64,000 nucleotides of DNA from Escherichia phage UGJNEcP3 (OV876907); one strand, 5' to 3'; counted from the first letter of the stretch, positions 11,677-49,261 are shown. The notes: a model not told the origin generated them from the sequence alone. Numbers and translations: made by a program.

Positions 11677-12456
11677 ATGGCAGTAGTAGGAATTCCTGGT
11701 TGGATTGGGACTTCGGCCGTCGCTGAAACCGGGCAAAGATGGATGTCGGCCGCTTCGAGGGAACTTCGTTTAGGAAACCCTTCATGGATGTCCCAATTCG
11801 CCGGCCGCTCAAGAGAAATTATTCACACACTTGGAGCAGACCATAACTTTAACGGTCAATGGTTTCGTGACCGTTGTTTTGAAGCCGGTGGTGCTCCTAT
11901 AGTGTTTAATATCACAGGCAACTTAGTATCATATACTAAAGATGTTCCGTTGTTCTTTATGTACGGTGATACCCCTAACGAATATGTTACTTTGAATATT
12001 CATGGTGGCGTTCATATGTGGGGCCGAGGTGGTAATGGTAGCGTAAATGGAAGCCCAGGCACTAATGGTGGCGACGTAATCCAAAATGATATTGGCGGAA
12101 GACTTCGCATTTGGAATTATGGTGTAATAGCCTCCGGTGGTGGTGGAGGTGGTGCAGTATCATTACAGAATAGTTGGCCTGCAAATTCTACCGCAGGTGG
12201 TGGAGGCGGTCGACCATTTGGTCTCGGCGGTGGTGGCGTTAATTGGCCTGGCGGCAATGCTAGTTATGACGGCCCAGGTGGTGGTGGTAATACAAGTCAA
12301 TTTGGCGGTGGTAATGGAGGTGATGCAGGTGGCGCTGGTGGCGACGGATGGGGCAATCACTTATCTAGATCTGGGGGTGGTGCTCCTGGTAGAGCAGTAT
12401 TCGGTTCCTCCCCATCATGGGGTTCTACAGGCACTATCTACGGCTCTTGGTTATAA
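11677..12456 (+). CDS. 38: T2-type glycine-rich receptor-binding adhesin gp38
   Basis: 259 aa; N-terminus [24 protein letters not shown] and polyglycine blocks as in T2/T6-type gp38 (memory). Confidence 0.85.
12127..12360 (+). repeat. GGT-rich polyglycine-coding low-complexity region inside gene 38
   Basis: runs of GGTGGTGG encoding GGGG(G) blocks separating short variable segments. Confidence 0.8.
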
Positions 12457-12472
12457 TACGAAAGTATTAAAT

Positions 12473-12480
12473 TATAAATA
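12473..12480 (+). promoter_or_regulatory. T4-type late promoter TATAAATA upstream of holin gene t
   Basis: exact TATAAATA ~20 bp upstream of t ATG. Confidence 0.7.
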
Positions 12481-12498
12481 TCTTTAAAGGAGAAAAGT

Positions 12499-13152
12499 AT
12501 GGAACCAAAAGTAGGATTTTCATTATCAGACCTACTTTTTGGACTTCTTGATAGAATTTTTAAAGATACTTCTTCCGGGAAAGTAGTTTTTTCCCGGGTC
12601 CTAGTCGTAATATTATTGTTCTTTATGGCATTAATTTGGTATAAAGGCGAGCATATTCTAAACTTTTACAAAGAGACAACTTATGCCTCTTATACTGAAA
12701 TGATTAGACAAGACCAGGACAATAGATTTAAAATTGCGGCTATCGAGCAGCTCCGAATAGTGCATTCTTCTTCAGGCGCAGACTTCACAGCAATATATTC
12801 TTTTAGACCAACCAACATGAATTATTTTGTGGACATGGTGGCTTATGAGGGTAAATTACCGGAAACGGTAGACGCAAAAAATACGGGAGGATTTCCGATT
12901 GACAAAACGTCAGTAGAGTATATGGCGGGAGTTAACGGGAACTATTTTGAATCAAGTACAGAAACTGTGTTCCTTCCTACAAAGAAGAAAACCCAATTCA
13001 CGTATATGTTCTCATGCCCGTTTTTTAATTTGGATAACATCTATGCCGGCTCGATATCATTATATTGGTATGATATCAAACCGGATTTAGGATTTCCTAG
13101 ACTTTCGTCTATGTGTGGTCAGGCCGGGAGGACATTAGGTCGAACTCGTTAA
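12499..13152 (+). CDS. t: holin T
   Basis: 217 aa; SxSDLLFGLLDRxFKD, one TM segment, C-terminal YAGxIxxYWY as in T4 holin (memory). Confidence 0.9.
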   Translation: MEPKVGFSLSDLLFGLLDRIFKDTSSGKVVFSRVLVVILLFFMALIWYKGEHILNFYKETTYASYTEMIRQDQDNRFKIAAIEQLRIVHSSSGADFTAIYSFRPTNMNYFVDMVAYEGKLPETVDAKNTGGFPIDKTSVEYMAGVNGNYFESSTETVFLPTKKKTQFTYMFSCPFFNLDNIYAGSISLYWYDIKPDLGFPRLSSMCGQAGRTLGRTR

Positions 13153-13424
13153 AAATTGGAGGTATACATCATTAGATAACGGTGTATATCTTCATACCCT
13201 TCATTAAATTGCTCAATAAGAGTATCACGTTCGTCTTCAGTTAAAGACTTAAAGAGTTTATTAAAAGATAAGCCGTTAAGTTCCTTTCCATGTTCATTAC
13301 GAATACCTAACTCATTCAAAAAGGCAATAAACTCATCACGACGTTGCATGATGTCTTCACAATCTGTTTTAATCAAAATAGAAACAATAGTAGCAATTTC
13401 GGAAACGATTTCAATTTTAGTCAT
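13149..13424 (-). CDS. asiA: anti-sigma70 factor AsiA
   Basis: 91 aa; ...IVSILIK...FIAFLNE...DEFNEGxExxxRYLxMYT matches T4 AsiA (memory); convergent with t. Confidence 0.9.
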   Translation of the reverse strand: MTKIEIVSEIATIVSILIKTDCEDIMQRRDEFIAFLNELGIRNEHGKELNGLSFNKLFKSLTEDERDTLIEQFNEGYEDIHRYLMMYTSNF

Positions 13425-13465
13425 AATATTCTCTTCAATTCAGTACGTCATTATCTGATAGGGCT

Positions 13466-13494
13466 ATATTAACATATCCTTAGGGATTGTAAAC
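13466..13494 (-). promoter_or_regulatory. early promoter for asiA
   Basis: GTTTAC(13489-13494), 17 bp, TAATAT, then AGCCCTATCAGA transcribed box. Confidence 0.55.
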
Positions 13495-13638
13495 ATGTTC
13501 TTCATTCATTTTAACATATTCCTGATACATTTCTTCGATAGGTTCCTGGAACTTAAAATCAGCTCCTAGGAATTCCTCAAAGCACTCCTGCTCACGTGTA
13601 CGCATACCTGTTACGGTGTTCTCTAAGTTATGACTCAT
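13480..13638 (-). CDS. hypothetical small protein (52 aa)
   Basis: ATG 13636-13638 with AAGGGA-like SD; not in ORF track (<60 aa); ends in asiA promoter. Confidence 0.3.
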   Translation of the reverse strand: MSHNLENTVTGMRTREQECFEEFLGADFKFQEPIEEMYQEYVKMNEEHVYNP

Positions 13639-13727
13639 AGCCTTTTCCCTTATGTTTCTGCTTACGCTTGGACTCTTTAAAATTTTTCTTCTTGTCCTTA
13701 TGAACAGAAGCCTTATTGAAATCGTGC

Positions 13728-14009
13728 TTAGCTACCAGATTGTTCACGTAATTTCCTTAATTGATATTCAAGAGAGCTTATAATTTCTTTATTAGTCGCA
13801 ATATACATATCACGTAGGAATGGCTTCAACCCTTCCATATTTCCATGGATTGTCTTAGAACTAATATTCTTTATATATTCATGGTCTAATGCATCCCAAG
13901 CCGGCTGGTTGACATATGTTCCCCAGTTATCTTCTACCATAGCATTCAGACGTTTAATATGGTTGATATGGGCTTCGATTGCATCAATCTGGAGTTGTTT
14001 AAGATTCAT
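13728..14009 (-). CDS. hypothetical protein at the arn (anti-restriction) position
   Basis: 93 aa between asiA and motA where T4 has arn; not sequence-verified. Confidence 0.5.
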   Translation of the reverse strand: MNLKQLQIDAIEAHINHIKRLNAMVEDNWGTYVNQPAWDALDHEYIKNISSKTIHGNMEGLKPFLRDMYIATNKEIISSLEYQLRKLREQSGS

Positions 14010-14506
14010 TAGTAAAGGTCCTCAGAGTAAAGTTCTTTTTCACTACCACCGCGTTCAATACGAACTTGATTAGCATACGTTGCAATAATCATTGCTTCTT
14101 CACGAGTCCAATAATTTGAATATTGGTCAATAAAACCTTGGTCGTCACCACAAACATGGTCGGACACAAGTTTATCACTTACTTGGTCAAGCACTTCTGC
14201 CATATCTTTGGAATAATGACGTGCACCCGGAATAATAAGTGTTCCACCGTCTTTTAACTTAAAGCGATTGGCTGCACATACAATTCGACGTTGGTATTTT
14301 TCATTGTTATTCCAATGTGCAATCTGCCAACAGATTTCAGGAACCTCTTCTAAAACATCCTCTTCCGAATATTCAGTGTAATCACCGTAGGCTCGTAATT
14401 TAGCTGCAAGACTTTCAGGTGTCTCACGAGAAAGGGCTTTATCCAACAAGGCCATACGGTCTTTAAAGGATAATTCTTTACCTTTTAATGGATTCATTTG
14501 AACCAT
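14009..14506 (-). CDS. hypothetical protein (165 aa)
   Basis: compact early-strand ORF in arn-motA interval; no motif recognised. Confidence 0.6.
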
Positions 14507-14823
14507 CCTTTAACACGTTGCCATAAAGTTTTCTGTTGGGCTTTGTTAACACCTATTGAACGAATAACTGGTTGTGATTCCTGGTATTCTTTGTAGTCTG
14601 CTTTATAGACTTCATAAGCGGCAGGAACAAAAGTGCTGATTGCGGCCATGAAATTCTTGCGAATTCCCATAGAAGCTTCAGAACCACCACGGATGATTAG
14701 GTATTTACCCGCTTTAATCTTAACAATAGTGCCGAGATAAGCGCCGTGGTACCAAATATCCCAACCTTCTTGAGTAGGTTCTACACAACGACGAAGTTCA
14801 TTAACAATATTCAGCTTGTTCAT
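14494..14823 (-). CDS. hypothetical protein (109 aa)
   Basis: compact early-strand ORF overlapping its neighbour by 13 nt. Confidence 0.6.
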
Positions 14824-14837
14824 AATAATTTCCTCAG

Positions 14838-15473
14838 TCAGATAATTGCGTTGGTTACGGTTTTGATAACTTCAGATGATACGTTTTGGAAGTCGATATA
14901 AGTATTCTTACCACCAGTCTTAATCTTAACATCAAGATTCAAGGAAGTAAACACTTGTTTTTCTTTATCAGTCATATTATAACCGAAAATACGCATCATT
15001 CCATCACGACGGACTTCGATTTGACGAATACCATTGGTACGTTTAGCGAATCGAACTTCAAGGTTGCTACGGTTTTCAGCAATTTCACGAATCTCGATAC
15101 GGTCTTCTAATAAAGCTTTAACTTCATCAGCCAGTGTTACCATTTCAGGAGTAACACCACGTGAACTGCGCGTTTTACGTTTTTCCAACATCTCTGGAGC
15201 ATTTTCAGAAGCGAACAGGTCTGCAGCTTTTTGAACGAGGTCCATTGCTTCACCTGTAGCCACTAAACCATCACCGGATTTTTCGATGAATCCTTTCTTA
15301 ATCAATACACCGATGTTAGAGTTAACTACCGCAGCACTAAATTGCTCATTCAGGGCTTCACGGACTTCGCCTGAAGTGATGAAGTTATGCTTGATGATAT
15401 GTACTAAGATTGAAGCAGTTTTTTCATTCAGGGCGTCTTCAGAAGCTTTGATGATATAAGTAATTTTAGACAT
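14838..15473 (-). CDS. motA: middle-transcription activator MotA
   Basis: 211 aa; MSKxTYIIKAS..LNEKTA...SNIGVLIKKG...KSGDGL matches T4 MotA (memory). Confidence 0.9.
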   Translation of the reverse strand: MSKITYIIKASEDALNEKTASILVHIIKHNFITSGEVREALNEQFSAAVVNSNIGVLIKKGFIEKSGDGLVATGEAMDLVQKAADLFASENAPEMLEKRKTRSSRGVTPEMVTLADEVKALLEDRIEIREIAENRSNLEVRFAKRTNGIRQIEVRRDGMMRIFGYNMTDKEKQVFTSLNLDVKIKTGGKNTYIDFQNVSSEVIKTVTNAII

Positions 15474-15504
15474 TTTGTATCTCCGATAACCATTTATTTG
15501 ATAG

Positions 15505-15540
15505 GTCTATAGTATCATGTTTAAAGCAGATGTAAACACT
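15505..15540 (-). promoter_or_regulatory. early promoter for motA
   Basis: GTTTAC(15532-15537), 17 bp, caTGaTACTAT, then AGACCTATCAA box. Confidence 0.6.
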
Positions 15541-15554
15541 TTTTCACTAAACCC

Positions 15555-15576
15555 AAAAAAGGAACCCGAAGGTTCC
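15555..15576 (-). terminator. intrinsic terminator hairpin (UUCG loop + T-run)
   Basis: GGAACC-UUCG-GGUUCC then TTTTTT on minus strand, right after the micro-ORF stop. Confidence 0.6.
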
Positions 15577-15681
15577 TTACTTTTTAAAGTGAGCTGCTAT
15601 TAAACCTATAGCTAGGCCTGTGGCCAGGCCTAGGATAATAGCAAAGATACAGAGTAACAAGAACTCGACTCCAAGGCTCAT
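15577..15681 (-). CDS. 34-aa hydrophobic micro-protein coupled to gene 52
   Basis: ATG overlaps gene 52 stop (ATGA); MSLGVEFLLLCIFAIILGLATGLAIGLIAAHFKK is one TM helix. Confidence 0.45.
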   Translation of the reverse strand: MSLGVEFLLLCIFAIILGLATGLAIGLIAAHFKK

Positions 15682-17057
15682 AGAGACTCCAAATCTTTAA
15701 CATACTCAGTTACAACATCAGTGGTTTTCCAATATTGATGCTCTTCTTTCTTAGCCTTGGCTTCGAGGGCCAGTTTCTTGGCTTCGTCAGAAGTGATATG
15801 GAAAATGTTCATGGCCACTAGTTTATCGGCATATTCGCCATAGACTTTATTACCGGTCAATTCTTCGGTTAAAACCTTACGGGTCTTACCTTGGATAACC
15901 ACTACACCATCAATAACATCTTTGATAAATGTGGCTTTAGCCAATGCTAGTTTGAAAGCTTCTTCGGTTTCGATGATTTTACCATCAATACGTTTTTGTA
16001 CAAAGGTCTTACGGACCTCAACGAAATCACGAATCAGTTCAACTACATCTTCGTAAACCTTAAGTTTACCTTTTTCATTAATGACGGTCAGGTTTTGTGA
16101 ACGACGTTCGATTAACCCGAAGTCCTTCATGAGTTTTTCGTGTTTCTTATCTTCATCGGTAGGCAATTCATATTCTTTACGAATCTTAACCTTGAAGCCA
16201 AAACCGTTCTCGTCACAGTCATCATCATATGTGATGTACCCTTTGTCTTCCAGAGGGTCTAATACCTTAGCCACATATGTTTCACGGTCATATTTGTATG
16301 GGATTTCCGTGATATGCATTTGGGTTCGAGATGTGAACTTATACGTTCCACGAATCTCATAACTACCTGGTTCAATTTCAACAACTTCACCTCGGAATTC
16401 AGGATAAGCCACTTTAGGCTTGGTTACTCGTTTTTCCTGAAGAACTTGCAATACAGCTTTCTTAACAGAATCAAAACTATGAGGAAGAATATTAGTTGCA
16501 TAACCAGTTGCAATACCGGAAATACCATTAAGAAGAACAGTAGGAATAATAGGCAGATAAAAAGCCGGTGGCTTATGTTCGACATCCGCATGAACCGGAG
16601 CATATTCTGTGTCCTTATAAACTTTTGCAAAGTTACTTCCGATACGAGCAAAAATATAACGAGAGGCTGCAGCCTTTTGAACCAATCGAGAACCGAAGTT
16701 ACCTTGACCGTCTAACAATGGATAGTTGTTGTTCCATGTGTTAGCCATCAAAGCCCCTGCTTCCTGAGCAGAACCTTCACCATGGTGATATCCAAGGTCG
16801 GCTACGCCACCAGCAATAGAAGCTAGTTTGTGGAATTTTTCTTTATTACCACGAGCCATATCAAGACAACGAGCAACTACAAAACGTTGTACAGGTTTAA
16901 AGCCGTCAATCATATTTGGAATGGCTCGGTTTTCGACAGTATACATTGCATAAGCCAATGCTTCGTTGTCGATAATACTTTTTAAGTCACGACGAGTGAA
17001 AGAATCATCGTAAACATCTAAAGCCTGTTTAAAAAGGGTATCAATTACATCAGCCAT
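15678..17057 (-). CDS. 52: DNA topoisomerase II medium subunit gp52
   Basis: 459 aa; GyrA-type N-terminus (AMYTVENRAIPNMIDGFKPVQR), T4 gp52 size and position. Confidence 0.9.
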   Translation of the reverse strand: MADVIDTLFKQALDVYDDSFTRRDLKSIIDNEALAYAMYTVENRAIPNMIDGFKPVQRFVVARCLDMARGNKEKFHKLASIAGGVADLGYHHGEGSAQEAGALMANTWNNNYPLLDGQGNFGSRLVQKAAASRYIFARIGSNFAKVYKDTEYAPVHADVEHKPPAFYLPIIPTVLLNGISGIATGYATNILPHSFDSVKKAVLQVLQEKRVTKPKVAYPEFRGEVVEIEPGSYEIRGTYKFTSRTQMHITEIPYKYDRETYVAKVLDPLEDKGYITYDDDCDENGFGFKVKIRKEYELPTDEDKKHEKLMKDFGLIERRSQNLTVINEKGKLKVYEDVVELIRDFVEVRKTFVQKRIDGKIIETEEAFKLALAKATFIKDVIDGVVVIQGKTRKVLTEELTGNKVYGEYADKLVAMNIFHITSDEAKKLALEAKAKKEEHQYWKTTDVVTEYVKDLESL

Positions 17058-17061
17058 AATT

Positions 17062-17202
17062 TTACCATACTAGTGAATGAATAGCCATAATAACATCGGA
17101 AATAAAAAGCACAACTTGGATAAGTCCGAACATTACTCCATAATACAGTGCTACTAATAAAGCAGCAAGGGCTACTGAGTAGCCCAAGATTTTCTTAATC
17201 AT
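17062..17202 (-). CDS. 46-aa membrane micro-protein (52.1 position)
   Basis: ATG 17200-17202 overlapping ac-like stop; hydrophobic. Confidence 0.45.
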   Translation of the reverse strand: MIKKILGYSVALAALLVALYYGVMFGLIQVVLFISDVIMAIHSLVW

Positions 17203-17356
17203 TTTTAATCATCTTAAGTAAACCGACAGAAGTAGAAAGAACCCAGCCAATAAACAGAAAACTTAAGAATACCGGACCAGGGGCCCACACACCTAAAAAG
17301 AAGCAAACTGAACAGACTATAGCCATAATAAGTTCAATAAAAACTAGGATAACCAT
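17195..17356 (-). CDS. ac: Ac-like 53-aa membrane protein
   Basis: ATG 17354-17356 with GAGGA SD; two hydrophobic segments; position between stp and 52 as T4 ac. Confidence 0.5.
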   Translation of the reverse strand: MVILVFIELIMAIVCSVCFFLGVWAPGPVFLSFLFIGWVLSTSVGLLKMIKND

Positions 17357-17366
17357 ATTTTCCTCA

Positions 17367-17444
17367 TTAGCGTCCGAAGACGCCTTTAGTTTTAAGATTG
17401 TTACGATAGAACTGCATCACATGCTCGTTATGGAAATTACTCAT
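17367..17444 (-). CDS. stp: Stp peptide (25 aa)
   Basis: ATG overlaps ndd stop (TAATG); [25 protein letters not shown] matches T4 Stp as recalled. Confidence 0.75.
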
Positions 17445-17893
17445 TAGTATGCCTGCAGAATGAATTTAAAGTTATCAGCCAACATGCGGTTCATTTCTTC
17501 CAGTGTCTGGAGGTCGGAACTATGATTGCGGGTGAAAGCCATTGCAATTTGACCCTTACCAAAACCGGTGGTCAGAGGTTTCATCTTAGAAGCTGGTACA
17601 TAAAGAACTTCATACACAACACCGTTCACTGCCATGGTGCGAGCTGATTGAGAACGTTTCTTACGAATGTTAGCCACGATGCCATCAAGACCTTGGGCCG
17701 AACGTTGATTACCGACATAAAAACGAGCAGCTACGACACGAGAATCAGCTCCACCTTTAACAAAGAAGTAGAAGCCTGGCTGAGCAGAGATTTCTTTAGA
17801 AGGTTTACCATTTTGGTATTCACCGTTCTTAACATAAGCAACAGTAGTAGCACCAGCAGACAGAACGTTACGGCGAGTCATATAAGTATTCAT
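17444..17893 (-). CDS. ndd: nucleoid disruption protein Ndd
   Basis: 149 aa; ...[10 protein letters not shown]...[25 protein letters not shown]...[20 protein letters not shown] matches T4 Ndd (memory). Confidence 0.9.
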
Positions 17894-17942
17894 ATCAATT
17901 TCCTCAGTAGATTAATGTTTTGTTATCCGGTCAACGAGAACC

Positions 17943-17971
17943 ATTATAACATGATTCTCGAGGTTGTAAAC
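17943..17971 (-). promoter_or_regulatory. early promoter for ndd
   Basis: GTTTAC(17966-17971), 17 bp, caTGtTATAAT; inverted repeat CGAGAA/TTCTCG flanks -10. Confidence 0.55.
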
Positions 17972-18315
17972 TATTTTTGTAGCTGTTCTAAAATAAATCC
18001 GCTCGTATAAAAAGAAGCATTATAAACCTTGTTCAGCGGGTTCAAAGCCTGTCCGTAAGTATCACGTAGTTCTTTGATAACATTTTCATAGCTTACATAA
18101 TAACCACTATGATAATACGGGTCCATACTCATACGAAATTTAATAAACCGATAAAATCCTGTTTCTGGGTCTTGAACGAAAACGAAATCGGCACCCATCA
18201 TAATTTTTGAATCTACGCCAGGAATCATACTTTGATTGAATGCCACCGATGCATCCTGAAGGCTGAGTTGTTTAAAGAACATTACCTTAGCATTACCAAA
18301 AAAGATTTTAGACAT
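17971..18315 (-). CDS. hypothetical protein (114 aa from internal ATG)
   Basis: ATG 18313-18315 with AAGGAAA SD after upstream stop; track ORF extends to 18339. Confidence 0.6.
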   Translation of the reverse strand: MSKIFFGNAKVMFFKQLSLQDASVAFNQSMIPGVDSKIMMGADFVFVQDPETGFYRFIKFRMSMDPYYHSGYYVSYENVIKELRDTYGQALNPLNKVYNASFYTSGFILEQLQK

Positions 18316-18325
18316 GATAATTTCC

Positions 18326-18538
18326 TTATTCAGCGTCAACAGAAATAGCCATCAGTTCATCAACAGTAAGACACTGTACACTAGGTCCTACACAAAAGCG
18401 CTTAGTTGAATCATAAAGGTCCGTGGCATTAACAGGTTGTAATTCGGTCCCAACTTGCAAAGGAGAAATGCGAATCAGTTGTTGACCGTTATGTAATACA
18501 AAGCTCTCGCCGACTACCACATCTTTAAAAAGTTTCAT
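18326..18538 (-). CDS. hypothetical protein (70 aa)
   Basis: start moved to MKLFKD ATG with GAGG SD overlapping the micro-ORF stop. Confidence 0.55.
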   Translation of the reverse strand: MKLFKDVVVGESFVLHNGQQLIRISPLQVGTELQPVNATDLYDSTKRFCVGPSVQCLTVDELMAISVDAE

Positions 18539-18548
18539 AATATTTTCC

Positions 18549-18659
18549 TCAGAAGTTAAAGAATACACGTACATGGTCAATCATAAAAACGATTGGGAAA
18601 ATGCTCAATACCATTAACAACACAAACATGTTCCAAATTGCTTTAAGTAAGTTTTTCAT
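18549..18659 (-). CDS. 36-aa hydrophobic micro-protein
   Basis: ATG 18657-18659 with GGAG SD just after an early promoter; MKNLLKAIWNMFVLLMVLSIFPIVFMIDHVRVFFNF. Confidence 0.45.
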   Translation of the reverse strand: MKNLLKAIWNMFVLLMVLSIFPIVFMIDHVRVFFNF

Positions 18660-18679
18660 AATCATCTCCATTAGTTGAT

Positions 18680-18716
18680 AGGTCTATAGTATCATGATTA
18701 ATGGAGATGTATACCG
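18680..18716 (-). promoter_or_regulatory. early promoter (GTATAC -35 variant)
   Basis: GTATAC, 17 bp, caTGaTACTAT, AGACCTATCAACTAA box. Confidence 0.55.
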
Positions 18717-18804
18717 ATTTATGCCAATTTCCACAACAATAAACTAAAACATACGCAAATCACTGGGATACAGGCCATCCAAATAAGGCACCACGTTTTG
18801 CTAC

Positions 18805-19071
18805 TCAAAACACCACCTCTTTTATCTCAATCAATCCCCTGTACAATGCAGTGCGGAGGTCATAAAGAATATCTATGCCGTCAACATTATCCAGTTTTCC
18901 ATCAATAAGCTTTTCTAAATCTTCCTTTGATGCGATTAAAGGACGGAGAAATTTACATTCAGAAAGAGATAACTCTGTAGTAACATCATCACCTTCACCT
19001 GACGCGTCATACATAGCGGCAACAACCATGCCTGTAACTTTGTGTTTAGCGTAATATAATTTGATATCCAT
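18805..19071 (-). CDS. hypothetical protein (88 aa)
   Basis: start at MDIKLYY ATG with GAGGAG SD; track N-extension is translated promoter. Confidence 0.6.
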   Translation of the reverse strand: MDIKLYYAKHKVTGMVVAAMYDASGEGDDVTTELSLSECKFLRPLIASKEDLEKLIDGKLDNVDGIDILYDLRTALYRGLIEIKEVVF

Positions 19072-19127
19072 TTTGTTCTCCTCATTAGTTGATAGGAAGA
19101 TAGTAACACCATCCATGGCATTATAAC

Positions 19128-19355
19128 TTAAGCAATGGAATGTTTTGGATGCTGTTTAGCCCAACCTACTAAAAATTCCCAATACTTTTCGATAGAACCG
19201 TAAAGATTAATTACCGTAGGAGTGGTAACTTCAGTCCAATCTTTTTGAACATTACCTGTTTTAATATTGGTAAGCTTGTGAAACACTTTACCGTTCTCAA
19301 ATTTATATTCTTCGATTTTACGATTGATTGCTTTAACAGAAGTAATAGAAGTCAT
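19128..19355 (-). CDS. hypothetical protein (75 aa)
   Basis: start at MTSITSV ATG with GAGAGGAAA SD; track N-extension is translated promoter. Confidence 0.6.
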   Translation of the reverse strand: MTSITSVKAINRKIEEYKFENGKVFHKLTNIKTGNVQKDWTEVTTPTVINLYGSIEKYWEFLVGWAKQHPKHSIA

Positions 19356-19369
19356 AATATTTTCCTCTC

Positions 19370-19408
19370 GTGTAGTTGATAGGAAGATAGTAACACCATC
19401 CATGGCGT
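19370..19408 (-). promoter_or_regulatory. early promoter
   Basis: GTTTAC(19400-19405), 18 bp, gTGtTACTAT, CTTCCTATCAACTAC box. Confidence 0.55.
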
Positions 19409-19431
19409 ATGTAAACACTTATTTTAAAAAA

Positions 19432-20013
19432 TTATAAGGCGAGATACCAGCCGTTGTAATTGCTCTTACGGACTAGCTTTGTGATGGCTTCTCTGTCGCC
19501 AGAGAACTTAGGAGTGAACAGGACGTCGCCTGCCTCATTTACTGAAGTGTCGAATATAATTATACAGTCTGCAACTTTATGATTCAAGAGCGGTCCCAGG
19601 TTAATCCCTGTTCCATAAGGGAAGTCACCGGAGTATCCTGTAGTACAGGAAATCCACTTAGAATCTGATTGATGGGTCTTGACCTCTACACGTAGTCCAC
19701 AATACATAGGATGAGCTAAAACATCCCATGCATAGGTATAAGGGTCGTCATGGTCTTCCAGACCACTGTTAACATATCCTTTCAACCAATCAGCCACCAT
19801 ATACTCGGCATACGTTGCAATGACACACCGAGTCAATACTTCTTTCTTATCTTGGGACGGGTCTTGGCTTAAGGAATACAGTACGGTATCCTTAATCTTA
19901 ACCTTCATTTCGCCTGTTAAATCAGATGTCTTCAGGGTAAATGTCGGCATCGCTGCCAATCGGAGTAGTCCCGGGTTCGTCTTCACCATAAATGCCTCGA
20001 ATATGAAGTTCAC
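19432..20013 (-). CDS. hypothetical protein at the denB position (start uncertain)
   Basis: 193-aa ORF; upstream part overlaps next ORF so true start is probably an internal ATG (19950 or 19908); DenB identity unverified. Confidence 0.45.
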   Translation of the reverse strand: MNFIFEAFMVKTNPGLLRLAAMPTFTLKTSDLTGEMKVKIKDTVLYSLSQDPSQDKKEVLTRCVIATYAEYMVADWLKGYVNSGLEDHDDPYTYAWDVLAHPMYCGLRVEVKTHQSDSKWISCTTGYSGDFPYGTGINLGPLLNHKVADCIIIFDTSVNEAGDVLFTPKFSGDREAITKLVRKSNYNGWYLAL

Positions 20014-36144: not shown

Positions 36145-36666
36145 TTAATAACCACGGTCCTGACGAGCAAAGTTCTCGGCATTTTTCAGATAATACAGTT
36201 TAAAGATTTCTTCTGCAGTAAGTCCAAGACCCTGGAACATATTCAGAACAAAGTGCAGAATATCAATCATTTCGAATTTAATTTCGAGTTGGTCTTCAGG
36301 AGACAACTCGTCGATACGACGATTACGGAATTCAGCATGCTGAGCTTTCCAAGGCTTCCACACACTAGAGGCTGCTTTTTCACCGTTGGACATACCGCCA
36401 AGAGAAGTCAGCAGTTCACGGAATTCATCGTCAATATAATCTTTCTGGTTGCGAAGCCAATCGACGACTTGACCTGCGGTAGCCAGTTCATCAGGATTAG
36501 AGTTGAATTCTGATTTTTCGGTAGCCAGGCGAACCTGTAAAGATTTCTGCATATCAAGCATAACTTGCAGAGGGTCTTTATCTTCATGAATCAGAGCATT
36601 AAAATAAGCTTCCTCAGCTTTATCAACACCAGAAATCAAACCACTACATTCGTTAAAAAATGCCAT
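36145..36666 (-). CDS. 56: dCTPase/dUTPase (MazG-like) gp56
   Basis: 173 aa; size, position (between soc and 61) and helical NTP-pyrophosphatase character. Confidence 0.8.
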   Translation of the reverse strand: MAFFNECSGLISGVDKAEEAYFNALIHEDKDPLQVMLDMQKSLQVRLATEKSEFNSNPDELATAGQVVDWLRNQKDYIDDEFRELLTSLGGMSNGEKAASSVWKPWKAQHAEFRNRRIDELSPEDQLEIKFEMIDILHFVLNMFQGLGLTAEEIFKLYYLKNAENFARQDRGY

Positions 36667-42848: not shown

Positions 42849-43162
42849 CTCTTAGATTTAATTTTATCCAGTTCTTCTTGTATTTGCATTGTAACACATT
42901 TTTCTACATGAAGCGCTAGCTCTTCTTTTCGGTCTTCGGAAGGTGTTCCGAAATCAACCGACACTTTTCCATCTTTCTCAATAACAATATTCATCACATA
43001 AACGATGTGAGCAGTGCCATCGGGTAAAGTAAGCATAATTTCCTGCTTAACAGAACCCATTGACTTACGGATTATATCTAATGATTTCTCATAATAACGA
43101 GGGTCACTAGGACCCTCTTCGGTATCTTTAACAAAATTATCTAAATCAGATAAATCAGTCAT
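42833..43162 (-). CDS. 40: gp40-position protein (head vertex assembly chaperone in T4)
   Basis: 109 aa between 41 and uvsX as T4 gene 40; not sequence-verified. Confidence 0.55.
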   Translation of the reverse strand: MTDLSDLDNFVKDTEEGPSDPRYYEKSLDIIRKSMGSVKQEIMLTLPDGTAHIVYVMNIVIEKDGKVSVDFGTPSEDRKEELALHVEKCVTMQIQEELDKIKSKRWWKW

Positions 43163-44327
43163 CTAAATCCATCTCTTCTAAATCGTTTTCGATATCAGCA
43201 GCGCTTTGGGTATTTCCACCTAATTTAACAGCAACGTTCTTAGAGACGCGAGAGTTAATAAGGTCGTTAACCGCATCGTCAACTTCTTTAATAGAATTAA
43301 TTGCACCGAGCTTATACTTATTCTCGATTGCTTCACGGAACGGAGCATGTTTAAACAGCGGTCCCCAGAACTCAACGCAATCGGTAGCTTTAGCACGCCA
43401 TGCTTTTTCTTCTTGAACCATTTCACCTGTGGTTTCGTCAAGGAATGCACGATTATACCAGCCAGCTTTAGGTTTCACGACAAAGCCGATATCAGTAGCC
43501 ATTTCAAGCAATCCACTGAATGGGTCGATACCACCTTCGAAGTTAACGGTGATAGGGAACGTTGATTTCTCTTTAACCGTACGAGATTTCTCGGCCTTCA
43601 GTGTGAAGTCATAACCTGTGAGCTCGGTACCATCTTTAACCTGACGTTTAGAGATAAAGAATACGGTAGAAGCAGAGTACAGAATACCAGTACCACCACC
43701 CATAATCTCTTTAGGATACATTCCACCAATTTCCATAGCCGTGTGGTTAATTGCTACACAAGGAATATCCTTGATGGTCAGATAAGGCGTTACGATACGG
43801 AACAGAGATTTCAGTGACTTAGCACGAGTCATATCACCTACAACTTTCTCGTTCAAAGCATCTTCGGTTTCTTTCTTAGAAGCAGTGTTACCAATAGAGT
43901 CGATAAAGATAATAACCTTTTCGCCACGAGTAATTTCTTCTAACTGGTTGGTCATATCAACTTTAAGCTGTTCGACTGACTGGATTGGGGTATGAACCAC
44001 ACGTTCCAAATCAACACCCATCGAACGGAAATAAGATTCTGAAGCACCAAACTCAGAGTCATAGAACAAACAAATTGCGTCTGGATATTTCTTCATATAT
44101 GCCGCAACCATGGTAAGTCCAAACAACGTTTTAAAGTGCTTAGATGGAGCAGCAAAGATTGTCAAACCTGATTGTAAGCCTGCATTCAACGCACCACCCA
44201 ATGCAATATTCAGCATAGGGATACGAGTAGGAACTTCGTCACGACCATTAAACAATTTAGATTTGGTCAGGTCGGCAGTCATTTTAGAAGTAGAAGCTTT
44301 AATCAAACGGGATTTTAAATCAGACAT
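43155..44327 (-). CDS. uvsX: UvsX recombinase (RecA/Rad51 family)
   Basis: 390 aa; near-collinear with T4 UvsX as recalled (MSDLKSRLIKASTSK..., YDSEFG, EKSRTVKEKS, WGPLFKH). Confidence 0.92.
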   Translation of the reverse strand: MSDLKSRLIKASTSKMTADLTKSKLFNGRDEVPTRIPMLNIALGGALNAGLQSGLTIFAAPSKHFKTLFGLTMVAAYMKKYPDAICLFYDSEFGASESYFRSMGVDLERVVHTPIQSVEQLKVDMTNQLEEITRGEKVIIFIDSIGNTASKKETEDALNEKVVGDMTRAKSLKSLFRIVTPYLTIKDIPCVAINHTAMEIGGMYPKEIMGGGTGILYSASTVFFISKRQVKDGTELTGYDFTLKAEKSRTVKEKSTFPITVNFEGGIDPFSGLLEMATDIGFVVKPKAGWYNRAFLDETTGEMVQEEKAWRAKATDCVEFWGPLFKHAPFREAIENKYKLGAINSIKEVDDAVNDLINSRVSKNVAVKLGGNTQSAADIENDLEEMDLDD

Positions 44328-44404: not shown

Positions 44405-45298
44405 TTAAAGGACCACGTCCTCATAACTTGGCATTTCGTGCTCAGAATGGATATGGGCACCGAAATAAATGAATTCAGCTAGACCAGGATGGAATACTAA
44501 ACCAGGATTCTCGTGATAAATGATATGAGGTCTTGATTTCAGAATCTGATAATATTCAACCTTACTAGGTTTGAATTTAATAATCTCTACATCAGGACGA
44601 TAGTCTTCACGTTTAAATGAATCATTCGGGTCGGTGATATAAAGGCGAGAACCTTCAGCTGCAGCTTGGTCTACAACTCTTTCGAATTGATAACATTTAT
44701 CAGAGATACGGAATGGATGGAAAATACCATCAATTTTAATAGGCGCTAGACCTTCAGAGTAACGCTCAATTACTGCGGGATTAATTACCTTTTGGTCTAC
44801 AAAAATCTTATCAGAGGACGCACCTCGTGACACCAGGACGTCTTTCTGGCATTGATTCAGGACTGTAGTATAAATCGAACGTTCAACTGAGGACACGTCG
44901 GTATCAATAAACTCGTCGATATAATAACGAGGAACTTCAGGGTCCATTGTAATGTTAAAGTTGAATTGTACAGTCTGAGTGCCATCATAACCTGTGATAT
45001 CGGTTACTAATCCTGAGCAGTCATAGTATTCGATTAACGAATCAACAACGAACTCGTTTTCAGACCAAAAATGTTTACGAGTTTCATAAGCATTTTCTTT
45101 ATACCAAAGCGGTACAAAATTCAGTTCAGGAAATAATTCAATGCATTCTTTGATATCGCTCGAATTTCTAGGATAAGCCAGATAATCACCTGGGCAAGCA
45201 CGGTTTAAATGGAGTTGAAAATTACCGTCCTTAAGGACGGCATATTCACCTGTTTCGTAACTACGCATACTGAAAATAGGAACGATAAACAGACTCAT
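44405..45298 (-). CDS. hypothetical 297-aa protein in the beta-glucosyltransferase locus (candidate DNA sugar transferase)
   Basis: occupies T4 beta-gt position between uvsX and 42-like gene; sequence does not resemble T4 beta-gt; no motif recognised. Confidence 0.6.
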   Translation of the reverse strand: MSLFIVPIFSMRSYETGEYAVLKDGNFQLHLNRACPGDYLAYPRNSSDIKECIELFPELNFVPLWYKENAYETRKHFWSENEFVVDSLIEYYDCSGLVTDITGYDGTQTVQFNFNITMDPEVPRYYIDEFIDTDVSSVERSIYTTVLNQCQKDVLVSRGASSDKIFVDQKVINPAVIERYSEGLAPIKIDGIFHPFRISDKCYQFERVVDQAAAEGSRLYITDPNDSFKREDYRPDVEIIKFKPSKVEYYQILKSRPHIIYHENPGLVFHPGLAEFIYFGAHIHSEHEMPSYEDVVL

Positions 45299-45993
45299 TT
45301 CAGGAATCCTCGAACATAGTCAAAATCACGTTCAAATACATGTGCACTAACCATAGTATGGGAATACGTACCCAGACCAACACCACACTGTTCAGCAATA
45401 AAGGCCATCAGTTTACCCTGCAGATAGAAATCCAGCTGCATAACGATAGCACAGTTCTGTGAACGCATATGAGTGTGTGCATACAGACGTCCATCACGAA
45501 TATAATATGTCACCGAATCGGTACAAGGATATTCTAAGGATTCGTCAGAATCAAGGAGGGCTTGGTCTTGTTCTTGGAGAATCTGGAACACAACTCTTCT
45601 TGAGTTAGGCTTCTCTTTAAGCTCTTTAAGTAAGGCTGGGAGTTGGGCCACAATTCGAGGTCCATAGAAAGTGTTGAAGTTTGCAGGCAATACGTCACTT
45701 TTCGGCTTATCAATGAACTTAGCAACATTAGGGTATTCCTTAAATGCTTCGGCGGCGTCAGTACCACCGGAAATCATAAACTTCCAGAAAGATTCGGCAT
45801 AATCATAGTTGATACGATTAATACGAGGGTCGGTGAATTTATAGGTGCTTGCATCCAGAACTTCAACTGAAGCCGAACCAATTTCATAACAACGACCGAT
45901 ACGAGAATCAACTGCAAACTGTGGAGCTTCCAGGATTTCTTCGTTCATTTGTTTAAATGCATTTTCAAAACTAACAGCGGTAATGTGTTTCAT
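45295..45993 (-). CDS. 42: thymidylate-synthase-family pyrimidine hydroxymethylase (gene 42-like)
   Basis: 232 aa; SRR arginine motif, catalytic-Cys block YPCTDSVTYYIRD, MRSQN...LD with Asp at the gp42 cytosine-specificity position, C-terminal SAHVF. Confidence 0.65.
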   Translation of the reverse strand: MKHITAVSFENAFKQMNEEILEAPQFAVDSRIGRCYEIGSASVEVLDASTYKFTDPRINRINYDYAESFWKFMISGGTDAAEAFKEYPNVAKFIDKPKSDVLPANFNTFYGPRIVAQLPALLKELKEKPNSRRVVFQILQEQDQALLDSDESLEYPCTDSVTYYIRDGRLYAHTHMRSQNCAIVMQLDFYLQGKLMAFIAEQCGVGLGTYSHTMVSAHVFERDFDYVRGFLK

Positions 45994-46526
45994 TTATTCA
46001 CCTCATAATTAATGTATTCATTAAGACGTTTTAATTCTACCATATCGACGTTAAGCAAGTTATTATGGCCGTCGTGATTTAAGATTTTAAACACGTTTTC
46101 AAAACATGTTTCATATTGGCGGATAGTTAGGTTGAACTCATCTTTAGTCAGTTTAATGAGGTCATCTTCAAAGTCTTTATCCAACGGATTACGGGTTAAA
46201 ATAACCTCAATGATATTGAATTCTTTTTTGAAATCAATCCAATCTGCTAGTTCTACATAAGGGTCCATTTCACCACGAAGGAATCCCGAGTAAACAATAT
46301 TACTAGGATAACCACGGTCTAGGATGTAAACGAAATTAGGGTCTAAAAACTTATACAACGTCTCGACTAAAGCCTTGTCATTATCAGTTCCTAACGAAAT
46401 ACATTTACCATTAATCTTTTTAGGAAAATCAATAAGACGATATTTCTTATCAGATAAAAGGGTTTCGATTAAAGTAGACTTCCCGGAATTATCCGGGCCG
46501 TCTATAACAATGATTTTTGGATTCAT
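45990..46526 (-). CDS. P-loop nucleotide/nucleoside kinase
   Basis: 178 aa; Walker A IVIDGPDNSGKSTL at N-terminus (dNK/TMK-like); unlike T4 gp1. Confidence 0.65.
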   Translation of the reverse strand: MNPKIIVIDGPDNSGKSTLIETLLSDKKYRLIDFPKKINGKCISLGTDNDKALVETLYKFLDPNFVYILDRGYPSNIVYSGFLRGEMDPYVELADWIDFKKEFNIIEVILTRNPLDKDFEDDLIKLTKDEFNLTIRQYETCFENVFKILNHDGHNNLLNVDMVELKRLNEYINYEVNK

Positions 46527-46897
46527 GGATGATAGGCCTTATAACTATCAAGAGTTCCTTCGCGAACCATTTCTTTAAAGTGGTCAGGACGAATTGCTCG
46601 GTCATCGATGATAAAAGTATAACTCGGCTTGTGTGTAAGCAAATTGTGATATTTCAATCCAATTTTTTCAAGGTTCTTAACCAATGCAGGAACTACTTCA
46701 ACCAAGATTCGGCCTGGGCCGCATGAAGTCATACCACGGGCAGTGAACAATGTAATCTCATGACCTTCATCGTACAGCTTATTAATCATGGACACCATTT
46801 CGGTGTCCGGTTTAAAGTTTTCATAATCACGGTCATCTTGCCAGTGAGTAATGGTATTATCGATGTCAAAGCACAAATGCATTAAATTTTCTTCCAT
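46523..46897 (-). CDS. HAD-superfamily phosphatase
   Basis: 124 aa; motif I FDIDNTIT (DxDxT), motif II TARG. Confidence 0.65.
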   Translation of the reverse strand: MEENLMHLCFDIDNTITHWQDDRDYENFKPDTEMVSMINKLYDEGHEITLFTARGMTSCGPGRILVEVVPALVKNLEKIGLKYHNLLTHKPSYTFIIDDRAIRPDHFKEMVREGTLDSYKAYHP

Positions 46898-48555
46898 TGT
46901 TTGTGGAGTTCAGTAGAACCTGTAGGTTTATATTTTACACCAGTTTCCTGGTCAAGCAAAACCCACTTATCAGGGCATCGAGTGATAATTTGGGCCGTAA
47001 TAGGGTCACGAACTTCATCGACAAATTCACCTGTAATAAGCTTACGCTTACGAGGATGCCGCTTCAGCAGCACACTCAGTTGATATAGACCGTTGTAATA
47101 AGCGCCCAGAGCTTTCAGAGGGTTATTTTTAAAGTAACCTGCCAACGCCATCCAGATAACAGCAATCCAGAGCTTGTGCTTAAATGTACACATTGGAATA
47201 TCATCTAAAGGCATAACCTTTTCAATATCAACGAATACTCGAGTTCCATTACGAGTTAAGCCACCCCATAGAGGGTCAGAGTTAAATTTGTCATAACCAT
47301 CGATAGAATAAAGCACCTTAGCTTCATCATAAATCGCAGGGCCTTTAGAACTATTACCAAAATAACCGCGTGGGTCGATGATTTTAATATCACCTTCGTC
47401 CGACAGCATAATATTACTGTAGTGCGGGTCGCCGTGAATAAGTTGGTACGGTTCTTTATGTTCAGACAGAATTTCTAGTGCATGACGAAGAAGTTTTTCT
47501 GGGTCGCCTACCTTAAAGTCATTGACATGGGTAATGCCCTGTGGAGCAAAGCCTTCAATCAATCCAGCAATAGAAGCATTACGAATAAGGACCTTGTCCA
47601 ATACTTCTTTCTTAACATCGGAATACCATTGCTCATCGGATGGATTATCGATAGTTCCACCAAATGAACGTAATGCACTAATGACCTTATAAACCATGAG
47701 GACTTTAGTTTCTTTAGACATAAACCGATAGGCATCTGCCATGGTGCGACCAAAGATACGTTCCATTTTAATGAATTCACCTGGAGCAAAGTCTACAATG
47801 CTCGGAACAAATTCAGAATCAATAGAATTATACCAATTGATTTCTTTAGATTGGATTTCTTTACCTAATTCGTTGGTAGGTACTTTAATAGCCAGATTCT
47901 CAGTGAACTCTAATTTATTAAATTCACGGTTAATTTCAGAATCTTCATGGGCCTTAGCCAGTTTCAATTTGTCACCGACATCAACTACAAAGTCCAGCTT
48001 ACGTTCGGTCAAATGGACCATCGAATCTAGGTTATCAGCAAGGTCTTCGCCATAATTAGAACGGTTGAAGCCTGTCCAATTAGCCACCTGATACAAACCA
48101 ACCACACCACCGCCAGTACCAATTTCACGCAAGTACGGTTCTTCAAATGTAAAACGACAGTCAGTCCCGTAGGTATAGCAATAGTCGTTATCCCACTCAA
48201 CTTTATGACCCTCAGGAATGATGTCACACCAGTTAAACAAGACGTTATGGCCAATGATATCTTCAGCAATGCAATCGATAGCATGAGCTGAACCATTAGC
48301 CACATCTACGTTACGAATAGTGAATTTAGGCTTATCACTATTAATCATGTTAATGGATTTAATATAGCCTTTAACGAGGTCGTTAAATTTGCTGTGAATA
48401 ACCAGAATAATTTCATCTGATTGGTTACTATACAAATCATACAAATGTTTTAATACAGTATGTTGTTTGTAGTTAACCAATACCTTCGGGATTTCGTTAG
48501 TAATTGGATACAACCGTGAGCCAAGACCCGCGCCTAAAATAACAACCTTTTTCAT
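46882..48555 (-). CDS. bifunctional sugar-1-phosphate nucleotidyltransferase / APH-fold kinase
   Basis: 557 aa from ATG 48553-48555 (GAGGAA SD); N-terminal ILGAGLGSRLYPIT..PKVLV (RmlA/GlmU-type); C-terminal LIHGDPHYSNIML + IIDPRGYFG (APH/ChoK-type). Confidence 0.75.
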   Translation of the reverse strand: MKKVVILGAGLGSRLYPITNEIPKVLVNYKQHTVLKHLYDLYSNQSDEIILVIHSKFNDLVKGYIKSINMINSDKPKFTIRNVDVANGSAHAIDCIAEDIIGHNVLFNWCDIIPEGHKVEWDNDYCYTYGTDCRFTFEEPYLREIGTGGGVVGLYQVANWTGFNRSNYGEDLADNLDSMVHLTERKLDFVVDVGDKLKLAKAHEDSEINREFNKLEFTENLAIKVPTNELGKEIQSKEINWYNSIDSEFVPSIVDFAPGEFIKMERIFGRTMADAYRFMSKETKVLMVYKVISALRSFGGTIDNPSDEQWYSDVKKEVLDKVLIRNASIAGLIEGFAPQGITHVNDFKVGDPEKLLRHALEILSEHKEPYQLIHGDPHYSNIMLSDEGDIKIIDPRGYFGNSSKGPAIYDEAKVLYSIDGYDKFNSDPLWGGLTRNGTRVFVDIEKVMPLDDIPMCTFKHKLWIAVIWMALAGYFKNNPLKALGAYYNGLYQLSVLLKRHPRKRKLITGEFVDEVRDPITAQIITRCPDKWVLLDQETGVKYKPTGSTELHKQWKKI

Positions 48556-48615
48556 TATCTGTTCCTCAAGTGAATGTAGGTACATTATACACTATTTTTA
48601 ATAAATTGGTATTGC

Positions 48616-49116
48616 TTAAATCTTATCTTTACCGATTTCAATACACTGTTCTATTGCCGCCGGTACTTTGGTCTTGAGCTTATCGATTTGTTTCTTATAA
48701 TCACGAGCTTTACCGAAGCTCTCGGTTTCGAGCATTTCGTAATAACGAGCCTCGTGGATGGAAATCTGTAGATTGATATGGTTTACGCACATCGCATACA
48801 GTTTCTGCTTTTTGTACAAATCATCTTGGCGCTTCATTTCTGCCTGGTGTTTGGCTAGTACCGCTTCACGCTTAGACTCTTGTTCACGTTGGAATTCGAT
48901 TTCCCTTTGAGCATATTTTGCACAGTTATTACCACATTGATTATTAGCTCGGGTATACACAAGTCCAGAACCGGCACGGAATTTCATTTCGCCATCGAAT
49001 TGTTTCTGTTCAGCTGCGATACGAGCTTTACCAACTTCATCGGCTGAAACTGCATCACCATATTGGACCGCACAACCTGATAGGAGCATACTCATTGCGA
49101 TAATTAACTTTTTCAT
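48616..49116 (-). CDS. lipoprotein with coiled-coil-like body (166 aa)
   Basis: MKKLIIAMSMLLSGCAV signal + lipobox; charged helical remainder; GAGGA SD. Confidence 0.6.
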   Translation of the reverse strand: MKKLIIAMSMLLSGCAVQYGDAVSADEVGKARIAAEQKQFDGEMKFRAGSGLVYTRANNQCGNNCAKYAQREIEFQREQESKREAVLAKHQAEMKRQDDLYKKQKLYAMCVNHINLQISIHEARYYEMLETESFGKARDYKKQIDKLKTKVPAAIEQCIEIGKDKI

Positions 49117-49123: not shown

Positions 49124-49261
49124 TCAATTAAAACAGTTATACTTAATTTGTGCTATAAGAATAATCCATCCTATGATTAATGTCGGAATCATTGGCGGAA
49201 TTGCCACTGCCCAATAAACGGTAAAGGCAGCCATTATAAGAAATAAAATAATTATCTTCAT
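49124..49261 (-). CDS. 45-aa membrane micro-protein (imm.1-like)
   Basis: ATG overlaps imm-like stop (ATGA); hydrophobic MKIIILFLIMAAFTVYWAVAIPPMIPTLIIGWIILIAQ. Confidence 0.4.
   Translation of the reverse strand: MKIIILFLIMAAFTVYWAVAIPPMIPTLIIGWIILIAQIKYNCFN

Follow-up and report, generated by a model that had tools for sequence, protein, structure and literature searches.

The window analysed here is a stretch of 64,000 nucleotides, one strand, from Escherichia phage UGJNEcP3 (OV876907). Between uvsX (43155-44327) and the imm region of this window, five overlapping minus-strand open reading frames (ORFs) occupy positions 44405-48555; the T4 gene order at the equivalent position is uvsX-segA-beta-gt-42-imm. 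From first to last, the genes encode a fusion of a nucleotidyltransferase (NTase) to a kinase, a HAD phosphatase, a P-loop kinase, a thymidylate synthase (TS) homolog and a 297-residue protein, and neighboring genes overlap at each of the four junctions, once through TAATG and three times through ATGA. An initial annotation of the window had placed five co-directional genes at this T4 beta-gt/gene 42 site, as we confirm, and had proposed them as a candidate nucleoside diphosphate-sugar and DNA hypermodification module, possibly for a pentose; the outline of that proposal is supported, its hydroxymethylated base is not, and its free-sugar scheme differs from the order of steps published for homologous enzymes. 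Here, we present evidence that the five genes are likely to be a minimal cassette for arabinosyl-5-hydroxycytosine (ara-5hoC) DNA hypermodification. Homology, active-site signatures, folds, synteny and gene content were observed directly, and from these we predict the enzymatic activities, which sugar is used, that its precursor comes from the host and that a single sugar is added.

Results

Conservation of the five-gene region

The 4.2-kb region is 100% identical to that of Escherichia phage UGJNEcP4 (OV877765.1; Straboviridae, Tevenvirinae, Dhakavirus), whose complete 170,590-bp record was the target of the whole-genome tblastn searches described below. It is 93-96% identical to about 50 further Dhakaviruses, including QL01, Bp7, WG01, IME08 and JS98, and the block recurs in 51 phage records, with nucleotide identities of 93-100%. 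Across the Dhakaviruses the cassette proteins are 96-100% identical while the DNA is 93-96% identical, and this excess of protein over DNA identity indicates purifying selection. The Pfam and PHROG matches of the cassette, with E values down to 1e-269, are far beyond chance. The motifs to which the initial annotation had pointed (NTase, HGDxxxxN, DxDxT and P-loop) were all found in the sequence, where GLGSR/PKVLV, HGDPHYSN, IDPRG, DIDNT and GPDNSGKS were verified.

A predicted cytosine C5 hydroxylase and the nucleotide-pool genes

The 232-residue TS-superfamily protein (45295..45993, minus strand) matches Pfam Thymidylat_synt, and its closest solved structures are PDB 9iqu/9iqc/9ir2 (E 1.5e-125, 79% identity), the sequence of which is 98.7% identical to gp48 of phage RB69. 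RB69 gp48 and DLP3 gp80 convert deoxycytidine monophosphate (dCMP) to 5-hydroxy-dCMP, with oxygen derived from O2 and flavin bound to the enzyme (PMC13326640), an assignment that was based on 18O2 labelling, the bound flavin and the crystal structure of the HY126 homolog (Lee et al. NAR 2026, PMC13326640). In E. coli ThyA numbering, D169N has been proposed as the diagnostic hydroxylase residue (PMC13326640); N177D is associated with dCMP specificity. We aligned the window protein by MAFFT with E. coli ThyA, the phage's own canonical td, T4 gp42 and RB69 gp48; all 12 of the residue/position pairs given in PMC13326640 were matched in the ThyA reference used. Relative to ThyA, the window protein retains C146 and carries L143E, N177D, D169N and W80A, as does RB69 gp48, whereas T4 gp42 keeps D169 and W80. 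When T4 gp42 was searched against the whole genome, the 232-residue protein was the sole match, at 25% identity. Because it is 79% identical to a 5-hydroxy-dCMP synthase, has D169N and has lost W80, the protein belongs by sequence to the hydroxylase class and is a predicted cytosine C5 hydroxylase (5-hydroxy-dCMP synthase), rather than the TS-family hydroxymethylase of the initial annotation.

Nucleotide-pool genes for full replacement of deoxycytidine are present in the genome: a dCTPase and a DenB-like nuclease confirmed by PHROG, and a gp1-type deoxynucleoside monophosphate (dNMP) kinase and an Alc-like protein by record annotation. The gp56-like dCTPase (36145..36666, minus strand; phrog_173, E 9e-44) lies outside the reported locus and is annotated likewise in OV877765.1. 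By analogy with T4 gp56 and RB69 gp28 (PMC13326640, Table 1), it would supply dCMP and remove dCTP, as required for complete replacement of cytosine. A genome that has the dCTPase, the DenB-like nuclease and the gp1 kinase, and lacks a gp42-type enzyme and alpha- and beta-gt, favors the assignment of the cassette to ara-5hoC. The remaining nucleotide enzyme, a 178-residue thymidylate kinase (TMK)-like P-loop nucleotide kinase (45990..46526, minus strand), belongs to phrog_761 (E 1e-38), has the P-loop GPDNSGKS and a DRG motif, matches YorR (2axp) weakly, and is 37% identical to RB69 gp45 and 76% identical to the Klebsiella phage version.

A predicted glycosyltransferase and sugar-activating enzymes

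The 297-residue protein (44405..45298, minus strand), whose gene is located immediately downstream of that of the TS homolog, had no match in Pfam, in NCBIfam or, by phmmer, among PDB sequences. It is an ortholog of RB69 gp46:47 and DLP3 gp79, with 64-69% identity to ORFs 047 and 046 of RB69, a single gene broken by a sequencing error (66% identity overall). Lee et al. named that RB69 gene arabinosyltransferase 1 (PMC13326640). The protein is also 51% identical to the single glycosyltransferase (GT) of Shewanella phage Thanatos. Sequence profiles alone being uninformative, orthology and the structure model identify it as a GT-B glycosyltransferase, predicted to add the base-proximal arabinose to 5-hydroxycytosine in DNA. 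The initial annotation had described it as a transferase candidate unlike beta-gt, and both parts of that description hold: neither T4 alpha-gt nor beta-gt gave a significant tblastn match in the whole genome (T2 beta-alpha-gt was not among the queries), and the alpha-gt slot between gp47 and gp55 contains small ORFs only.

The 557-residue fusion (46882..48555, minus strand) consists of an NTase (residues 1-~215; Pfam NTP_transferase) and a kinase of the APH/choline-kinase fold (residues ~216-557; Pfam APH). In its structure model (predicted local distance difference test score 91.9), the N-terminal domain resembles RmlA, LicC and MurU, and the C-terminal domain has choline/ethanolamine kinases, glucosamine kinase and APH enzymes as structural neighbors, in agreement with the two folds first assigned to it. 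LicC, MurU and glucosamine kinase have also been reported as structural neighbors of RB69 gp52:53 and DLP3 gp82 (PMC13326640). The catalytic residues of both domains are invariant in 45 homologs. The protein is predicted to be AfhE-like, that is, a D-arabinose-5-phosphate (A5P) 1-kinase and a UDP-arabinose pyrophosphorylase.

The 119-residue HAD phosphatase (46523..46882, minus strand) is about 62% identical to PDB 9iqw (E 2e-51) and 61% identical to RB69 gp51, also matches 1xpj and the capsule-biosynthesis phosphatase family TIGR01689 (E 5e-14), and has all four HAD motifs intact (D6xD8xT10, T47, K85 and D93D94). PDB 9iqw was deposited in one series with the TS homolog and GT of HY126 and is therefore presumably AfhF. 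By sequence, the 119-residue protein is predicted to be an AfhF-like arabinose-1,5-bisphosphate 5-phosphatase. Its PHROG and RefSeq name, 'phosphoheptose isomerase', was rejected in view of the HAD motifs and the matches to TIGR01689, 1xpj and 9iqw.

As He et al. are summarized in PMC13326640, AfhE converts A5P to the 1,5-bisphosphate, AfhF strips the 5-phosphate, and the N-terminal domain of AfhE then forms UDP-arabinofuranose. On that summary, the free-sugar kinase of the initial annotation, with a phosphatase supplying its free sugar, would give way to enzymes homologous to AfhE and AfhF that act on A5P before the 5-phosphate is removed. In the same summary (PMC13326640) the Afh substrate is a sugar 5-phosphate; AmgK of the AmgK/MurU salvage pair uses a free sugar. 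Database proteins of 920-946 residues fuse HAD, SIS (sugar isomerase), NTase and kinase domains, and these natural fusions tie the family to A5P chemistry, an independent line of support. The order of a kinase followed by a phosphatase is mechanistically parallel to the GmhA/HldE/GmhB route to ADP-heptose. That route differs in that HldE has a ribokinase fold, whereas the kinase here has an APH/choline-kinase fold and the isomerase step would be outsourced to the host. Butyrivibrio proteins similar to the four-domain fusions, and IME08 gp43 as a full-length homolog, were noted earlier by Thomas et al. 2018 (PMC6024577).

Gene content compared with related clusters

We compared the loci of RB69, Klebsiella kv_tblp8, Proteus SJ_PmiM, Serratia LC53, Acinetobacter DLP2 and Thanatos-2. 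Location, from pol to uvsX, and gene set match those of RB69, LC53, DLP2 and Thanatos, and Dhakaviruses have been named among the genera with a syntenic cluster (Lee et al. NAR 2026, PMC13326640). The RB69 proteins matched in the genome by tblastn were the TS homolog p048 (79%), the first glycosyltransferase (GT1) p046:47 (64-69%), the HAD phosphatase p051 (61%), the fusion p052:53 (41-44%) and the TMK-like kinase p045 (37%). No match to the A5P isomerase of RB69 (p055, an SIS-domain protein) was obtained at E<=0.1 in the complete genome, nor was there a tblastn match there to the U32 protein (p050), to p049 or to the second GT (p003). The cassette thus shares with the ara-5hoC pathway of RB69 and HY126 (Mosigvirus) its slot and five orthologous proteins, and differs from RB69 in the absence of these four; in addition, the TMK-like gene adjoins uvsX in RB69 and lies between the HAD and TS genes here. 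RB69 DNA is mono- and di-arabinosylated; only the mono-arabinosylated form would be expected in this phage.

The A5P isomerase was likewise not found in the Klebsiella, Proteus and Thanatos loci, so that ara-5hoC clusters do not universally include a phage isomerase, which is an accessory gene. In a phage database, the fusion and GT1 occurred in about 360 records and the isomerase in 276, none of them from Klebsiella or Proteus phages and with 39 fewer Escherichia phages; the second GT occurred in 212 records, limited to Mosigvirus and Acinetobacter phages. In Klebsiella kv_tblp8 and Proteus SJ_PmiM the fusion, HAD and TMK-like genes are ordered as in Dhakavirus, also without an isomerase, but a U32 protein and a chorismate mutase are encoded between the TMK-like and TS genes. 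Among the clusters compared, the Dhakavirus cassette is the most reduced version.

The cluster of Thanatos (Shewanella; mono-pentosylated cytosine, PMC12838424) is similar in having a single GT-B gene (51% protein identity) syntenic with a TS homolog, a 561-residue fusion, a HAD protein, a TMK-like kinase and no isomerase in the locus; it differs in keeping the U32 and chorismate mutase genes, in the clade to which its fusion belongs (clade A, below) and in a C-terminal extension of its HAD protein (196 residues). Thanatos, with its single GT, has been described as mono-arabinosylated (PMC13326640). The nucleoside of Thanatos was recorded at m/z 360.10 and termed a deoxypentose on cytosine (PMC12838424), as against the reference mass of m/z 376 for mono-arabinosyl-5-hydroxy-dC (PMC13326640), a gap of 16 Da. 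In the Acinetobacter phages DLP3 and DLP2 (Lazarusvirus), which have tri-arabinosyl-5hoC, the TS homolog (71%), GT1 (50%), HAD (60%) and fusion (44%) are shared and U32 is likewise absent; these phages differ in encoding the A5P isomerase and two more GTs that extend the chain to three arabinoses (PMC13326640). The T4 glucosyl-hydroxymethylcytosine system (gp42, alpha-gt, beta-gt) differs: it uses a hydroxymethyl rather than a hydroxyl handle, folate rather than flavin/O2 chemistry, and UDP-glucose from the host rather than a phage-made donor, and its alpha- and beta-gt have no sequence homolog here.

Among the proteins of the clusters that have it, the U32 protein (Peptidase_U32), whose gene neighbors that of a small type II chorismate mutase, is the best conserved (79-89% identity across genera). 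Its gene lies at 4993-6162 in the RB69 locus (L002; p050), 9675-11077 in the Klebsiella locus (L010), 3485-5278 in the Proteus locus (L011), 9681-11191 in the Serratia LC53 locus (L012) and 9462-10852 in the Thanatos-2 locus (L014); the pair is absent here and from the Acinetobacter DLP2 locus. Prephenate is the product of chorismate mutase. The bacterial U32 proteins RlhA, which forms 5-hydroxycytidine in 23S rRNA, TrhP and UbiU/V are O2-independent, prephenate-dependent hydroxylases (PMC5727448, PMC6599085, PMC10990095). By analogy, the U32 protein and chorismate mutase may provide an anaerobic route to 5-hydroxycytosine in the phages carrying the pair. The U32 protein has been labelled only as a 'sugar or heterocycle reductase' (PMC13326640), and a literature search to which He et al. 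and Mahler et al. 2025 were external found nothing linking phage U32 and chorismate mutase to anaerobic 5-hydroxycytosine.

Divergence of the fusion protein

Identity matrices for the TS homolog, GT1, the HAD protein and the fusion were computed for seven phages. The first three show smooth gradients; the fusion alone splits into two clades. Clade A (RB69, LC53, DLP2 and Thanatos) is 52-71% identical internally and clade B (Dhakavirus, Klebsiella and Proteus phages) 70-80%, with 42-45% identity between the clades and the divergence spread evenly across both domains. Clade B comprises only three 90%-identity clusters among 5.8 billion proteins and coincides with the absence of a phage A5P isomerase; about 80 phage records have the clade-B fusion. 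In a neighbor-joining tree, a simple distance tree without support values, clade B falls within the Straboviridae sequences on a long branch. Replacement of the fusion by a foreign gene was rejected on this placement. The simplest reading of the split is that the fusion evolved faster after the phage isomerase was lost; selection that was relaxed or shifted, or a changed substrate, may lie behind it.

Gene starts, expression signals and neighboring genes

Two gene starts and the flanking genes are corrected here; the five ORFs and the 557-residue length given in the initial annotation stand. The fusion starts at 48555 (557 residues) and not at 48585, because the ATG at 48585 lies inside a -10 box, the homologs start with MKKVV, and a GAGGA Shine-Dalgarno sequence (48563-48567) precedes 48555. 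The HAD protein, of 119 residues, starts at 46882 and not at 46897, since its homologs start there. Candidate expression signals of the cassette are tentatively placed at 48563..48589 on the minus strand from a reading of the sequence; ahead of the fusion gene, the candidate extended -10 element is TGTATAAT at 48584-48591 (TGnTATAAT box). A generic sigma-70 scan of the region found 17 sites against 18.2 expected from shuffled sequences, hence no enrichment; such a promoter and terminator scan is uninformative for T4-type promoters.

The cassette does not directly adjoin imm, as two minus-strand ORFs intervene. The first (48616-49116; phrog_1754) encodes a 166-residue protein with a lipoprotein signal (MKKLIIAMSMLLSGC, lipobox LSGC). 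The corresponding position, between pol or imm and the fusion, is also taken by a gene for a lipoprotein or signal-peptide protein in Proteus SJ_PmiM (29% identity, E 8e-4), Serratia LC53 and Thanatos-2. The protein is probably outside the modification pathway and may have a function of the superinfection-exclusion type. The second ORF (49127-49234), between the lipoprotein gene and imm, encodes 36 hydrophobic residues (MAAFTVYWAVAIPPMIPTLIIGWIILIAQIKYNCFN) that are 56% identical to RB69 ORF054c (phrog_3610, E 6e-20); it is conserved, yet uncalled in the public record.

Public annotations of the genes in 44405-46897 are inconsistent and mostly wrong: the predicted hydroxylase is called 'thymidylate synthase' or 'dCMP hydroxymethylase', the HAD phosphatase 'phosphoheptose isomerase', and the glycosyltransferase 'RNA polymerase binding protein' or 'hypothetical protein'. 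Relative to OV877765.1 the window is circularly permuted, with window 19363-64000 equal to record 1-44638 and window 1-19489 equal to record 151102-170590. The 127 bp at window 19363-19489 are found at either end of OV877765.1, as its first and as its last 127 bases. The linear record therefore has a short terminal duplication and the window runs across the record's ends, which is consistent with a circularly permuted genome assembly.

Discussion

A pathway can be proposed in which two branches, one for the base and one for the sugar, meet at the replicated DNA. The phage dCTPase would yield dCMP, which the 232-residue TS homolog would hydroxylate at C5 with flavin and O2 to give 5-hydroxy-dCMP. 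The gp1-type dNMP kinase, possibly together with the TMK-like kinase of the cassette, and the host nucleoside diphosphate kinase would raise this to the triphosphate, which the phage polymerase would insert instead of deoxycytidine. In the sugar branch, A5P would be supplied by host KdsD/GutQ; this origin is suggested by the lack of a phage isomerase in the genome and by 3-deoxy-D-manno-octulosonate (Kdo) biosynthesis, enterobacterial hosts making A5P for Kdo synthesis through KdsD/GutQ. The kinase domain of the fusion would phosphorylate A5P at C1, the 119-residue HAD phosphatase would take off the 5-phosphate to leave arabinose-1-phosphate, and the NTase domain would join this to UTP to form UDP-arabinofuranose. 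Finally, the 297-residue GT-B enzyme would add arabinose to the cytosine 5-hydroxyl in replicated DNA. Since the genome has a single GT and the single-GT phage Thanatos has been described as mono-arabinosylated, the product predicted by this analogy is mono-arabinosyl-5-hydroxycytosine (m/z 376) made from host A5P.

Several observations weigh against this proposal. A literature search found no chemical data on the DNA of any Dhakavirus, including IME08, JS98 and Bp7. The A5P isomerase is absent from the whole genome though RB69, DLP3 and LC53 encode it, and all fusions of phages in which arabinose is proven share just 42-45% identity with the one here; the sugar could therefore differ. The TMK-like kinase, conserved in all clusters examined, has only a possible place in the pathway. 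As to the order of the steps, Table 1 of PMC13326640 gives an alternative in which the 5-phosphatase acts first and is followed by a free-arabinose kinase.

Some of these observations would be explained if the scaffold were the same and the sugar different, the diverged clade-B fusion activating a host sugar phosphate other than A5P (for example, ribose-5-phosphate via ribose-1,5-bisphosphate). The DNA of Dhakavirus, Klebsiella Marfavirus-like and Proteus Bragavirus phages would then carry glycosyl-5-hydroxycytosine in which the sugar is not D-arabinofuranose. The two-clade split that TS, GT1 and HAD do not mirror, the long branch of clade B with its roughly 80 records, the missing isomerase in the whole Dhakavirus genome and the absence of Klebsiella and Proteus phages from the isomerase matches all speak for it. 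We nevertheless consider it unlikely. GT1 and the HAD phosphatase, which also have to recognize the sugar, show 61-68% identity to the RB69 proteins and no such division into clades; the divergence of the fusion is not focused in one domain; a host supply of A5P from KdsD/GutQ makes a phage isomerase unnecessary; and the Thanatos locus (17 kb) lacks an isomerase, yet has a clade-A fusion and is reported to be arabinosylated.

Weaker is the view that the cassette has decayed and that the DNA contains 5-hydroxycytosine without glycosylation, following loss of the isomerase, the U32/chorismate mutase pair and the second GT. The smallest gene set among the compared clusters and a fast-evolving fusion fit such a course, but the catalytic motifs of fusion, HAD protein and kinase are all intact, the structure models have high confidence and well-formed folds, the overlapping ORFs are all of full length, and amino-acid identity (96-100%) exceeds nucleotide identity (93-96%) over about 50 Dhakavirus genomes, which together make decay quite improbable.

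Still less credible is a gp42-like hydroxymethylase making 5-hydroxymethylcytosine (hmC), with a pentose added to the hydroxymethyl group. This arabinosyl-hmC was reported for RB69 by Thomas et al. 2018 (PMC6024577) and was a premise of the initial annotation; the TS-superfamily enzyme does share N177D and L143E with gp42 and is publicly annotated as a dCMP hydroxymethylase. Its D169N and W80A fit the hydroxylase class, however, and its identity is far higher to a proven 5-hydroxy-dCMP producer (79%) than to T4 gp42 (25%). Moreover, the premise has fallen for RB69 itself, two later papers having declared the original assignment erroneous, with the sugar ether-linked to C5 (PMC13326640; PMC13390438). 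Least probable of all is a target other than DNA (capsule, lipopolysaccharide or glycosylated virion protein): the match of the HAD protein to TIGR01689, the resemblance of the NTase to LicC/MurU and annotated names like 'capsule biosynthesis protein' or 'phosphoheptose isomerase' suggest one, but the genes are translationally coupled to the 5-hydroxy-dCMP synthase gene and lie where T4 has its DNA-modification genes, members of the family occur only in phages that have the TS homolog as well, and UDP-arabinofuranose-dependent DNA arabinosylation by orthologous clusters has been reconstituted in vitro (PMC13326640).

In 2018, RB69 DNA was reported to carry arabinose and candidate genes for UDP-arabinose were described (PMC6024577), and the ara-5hoC chemistry and enzymes of RB69, HY126 and DLP3 were published in 2025-2026, as described by Lee et al. 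(NAR 2026, PMC13326640) alongside Mahler et al. 2025 and He et al. Systems of this kind are thus already known, and what is particular here is the reduced gene set and the diverged fusion. In the literature searched, which did not include Mahler et al. 2025 and He et al., we found nothing on the absence of the isomerase, on A5P coming from the host or on the two clades of the fusion.

The assignment to ara-5hoC corrects misleading public annotations of the cassette genes and answers, by inference, a question left open by Petrov et al. in 2010 (PMC2993671), namely the nature of the JS98-type modification and the role of a gene-42-like enzyme in phages of this type that have no glucosyltransferase. 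Dhakaviruses are therapeutic and biocontrol coliphages, and their probable ara-5hoC DNA bears on sequencing and cloning artefacts, on sensitivity to type IV restriction (BrxU/GmrSD) and CRISPR, and on phage engineering. Were the sugar of the clade-B phages, against expectation, not arabinose, their glycosyl-5-hydroxycytosine would be a previously undescribed base of DNA. With its five genes, the cassette is perhaps the most compact set that nature has for ara-5hoC modification and, if the predictions hold, the phage would depend on host KdsD/GutQ and on oxygen.

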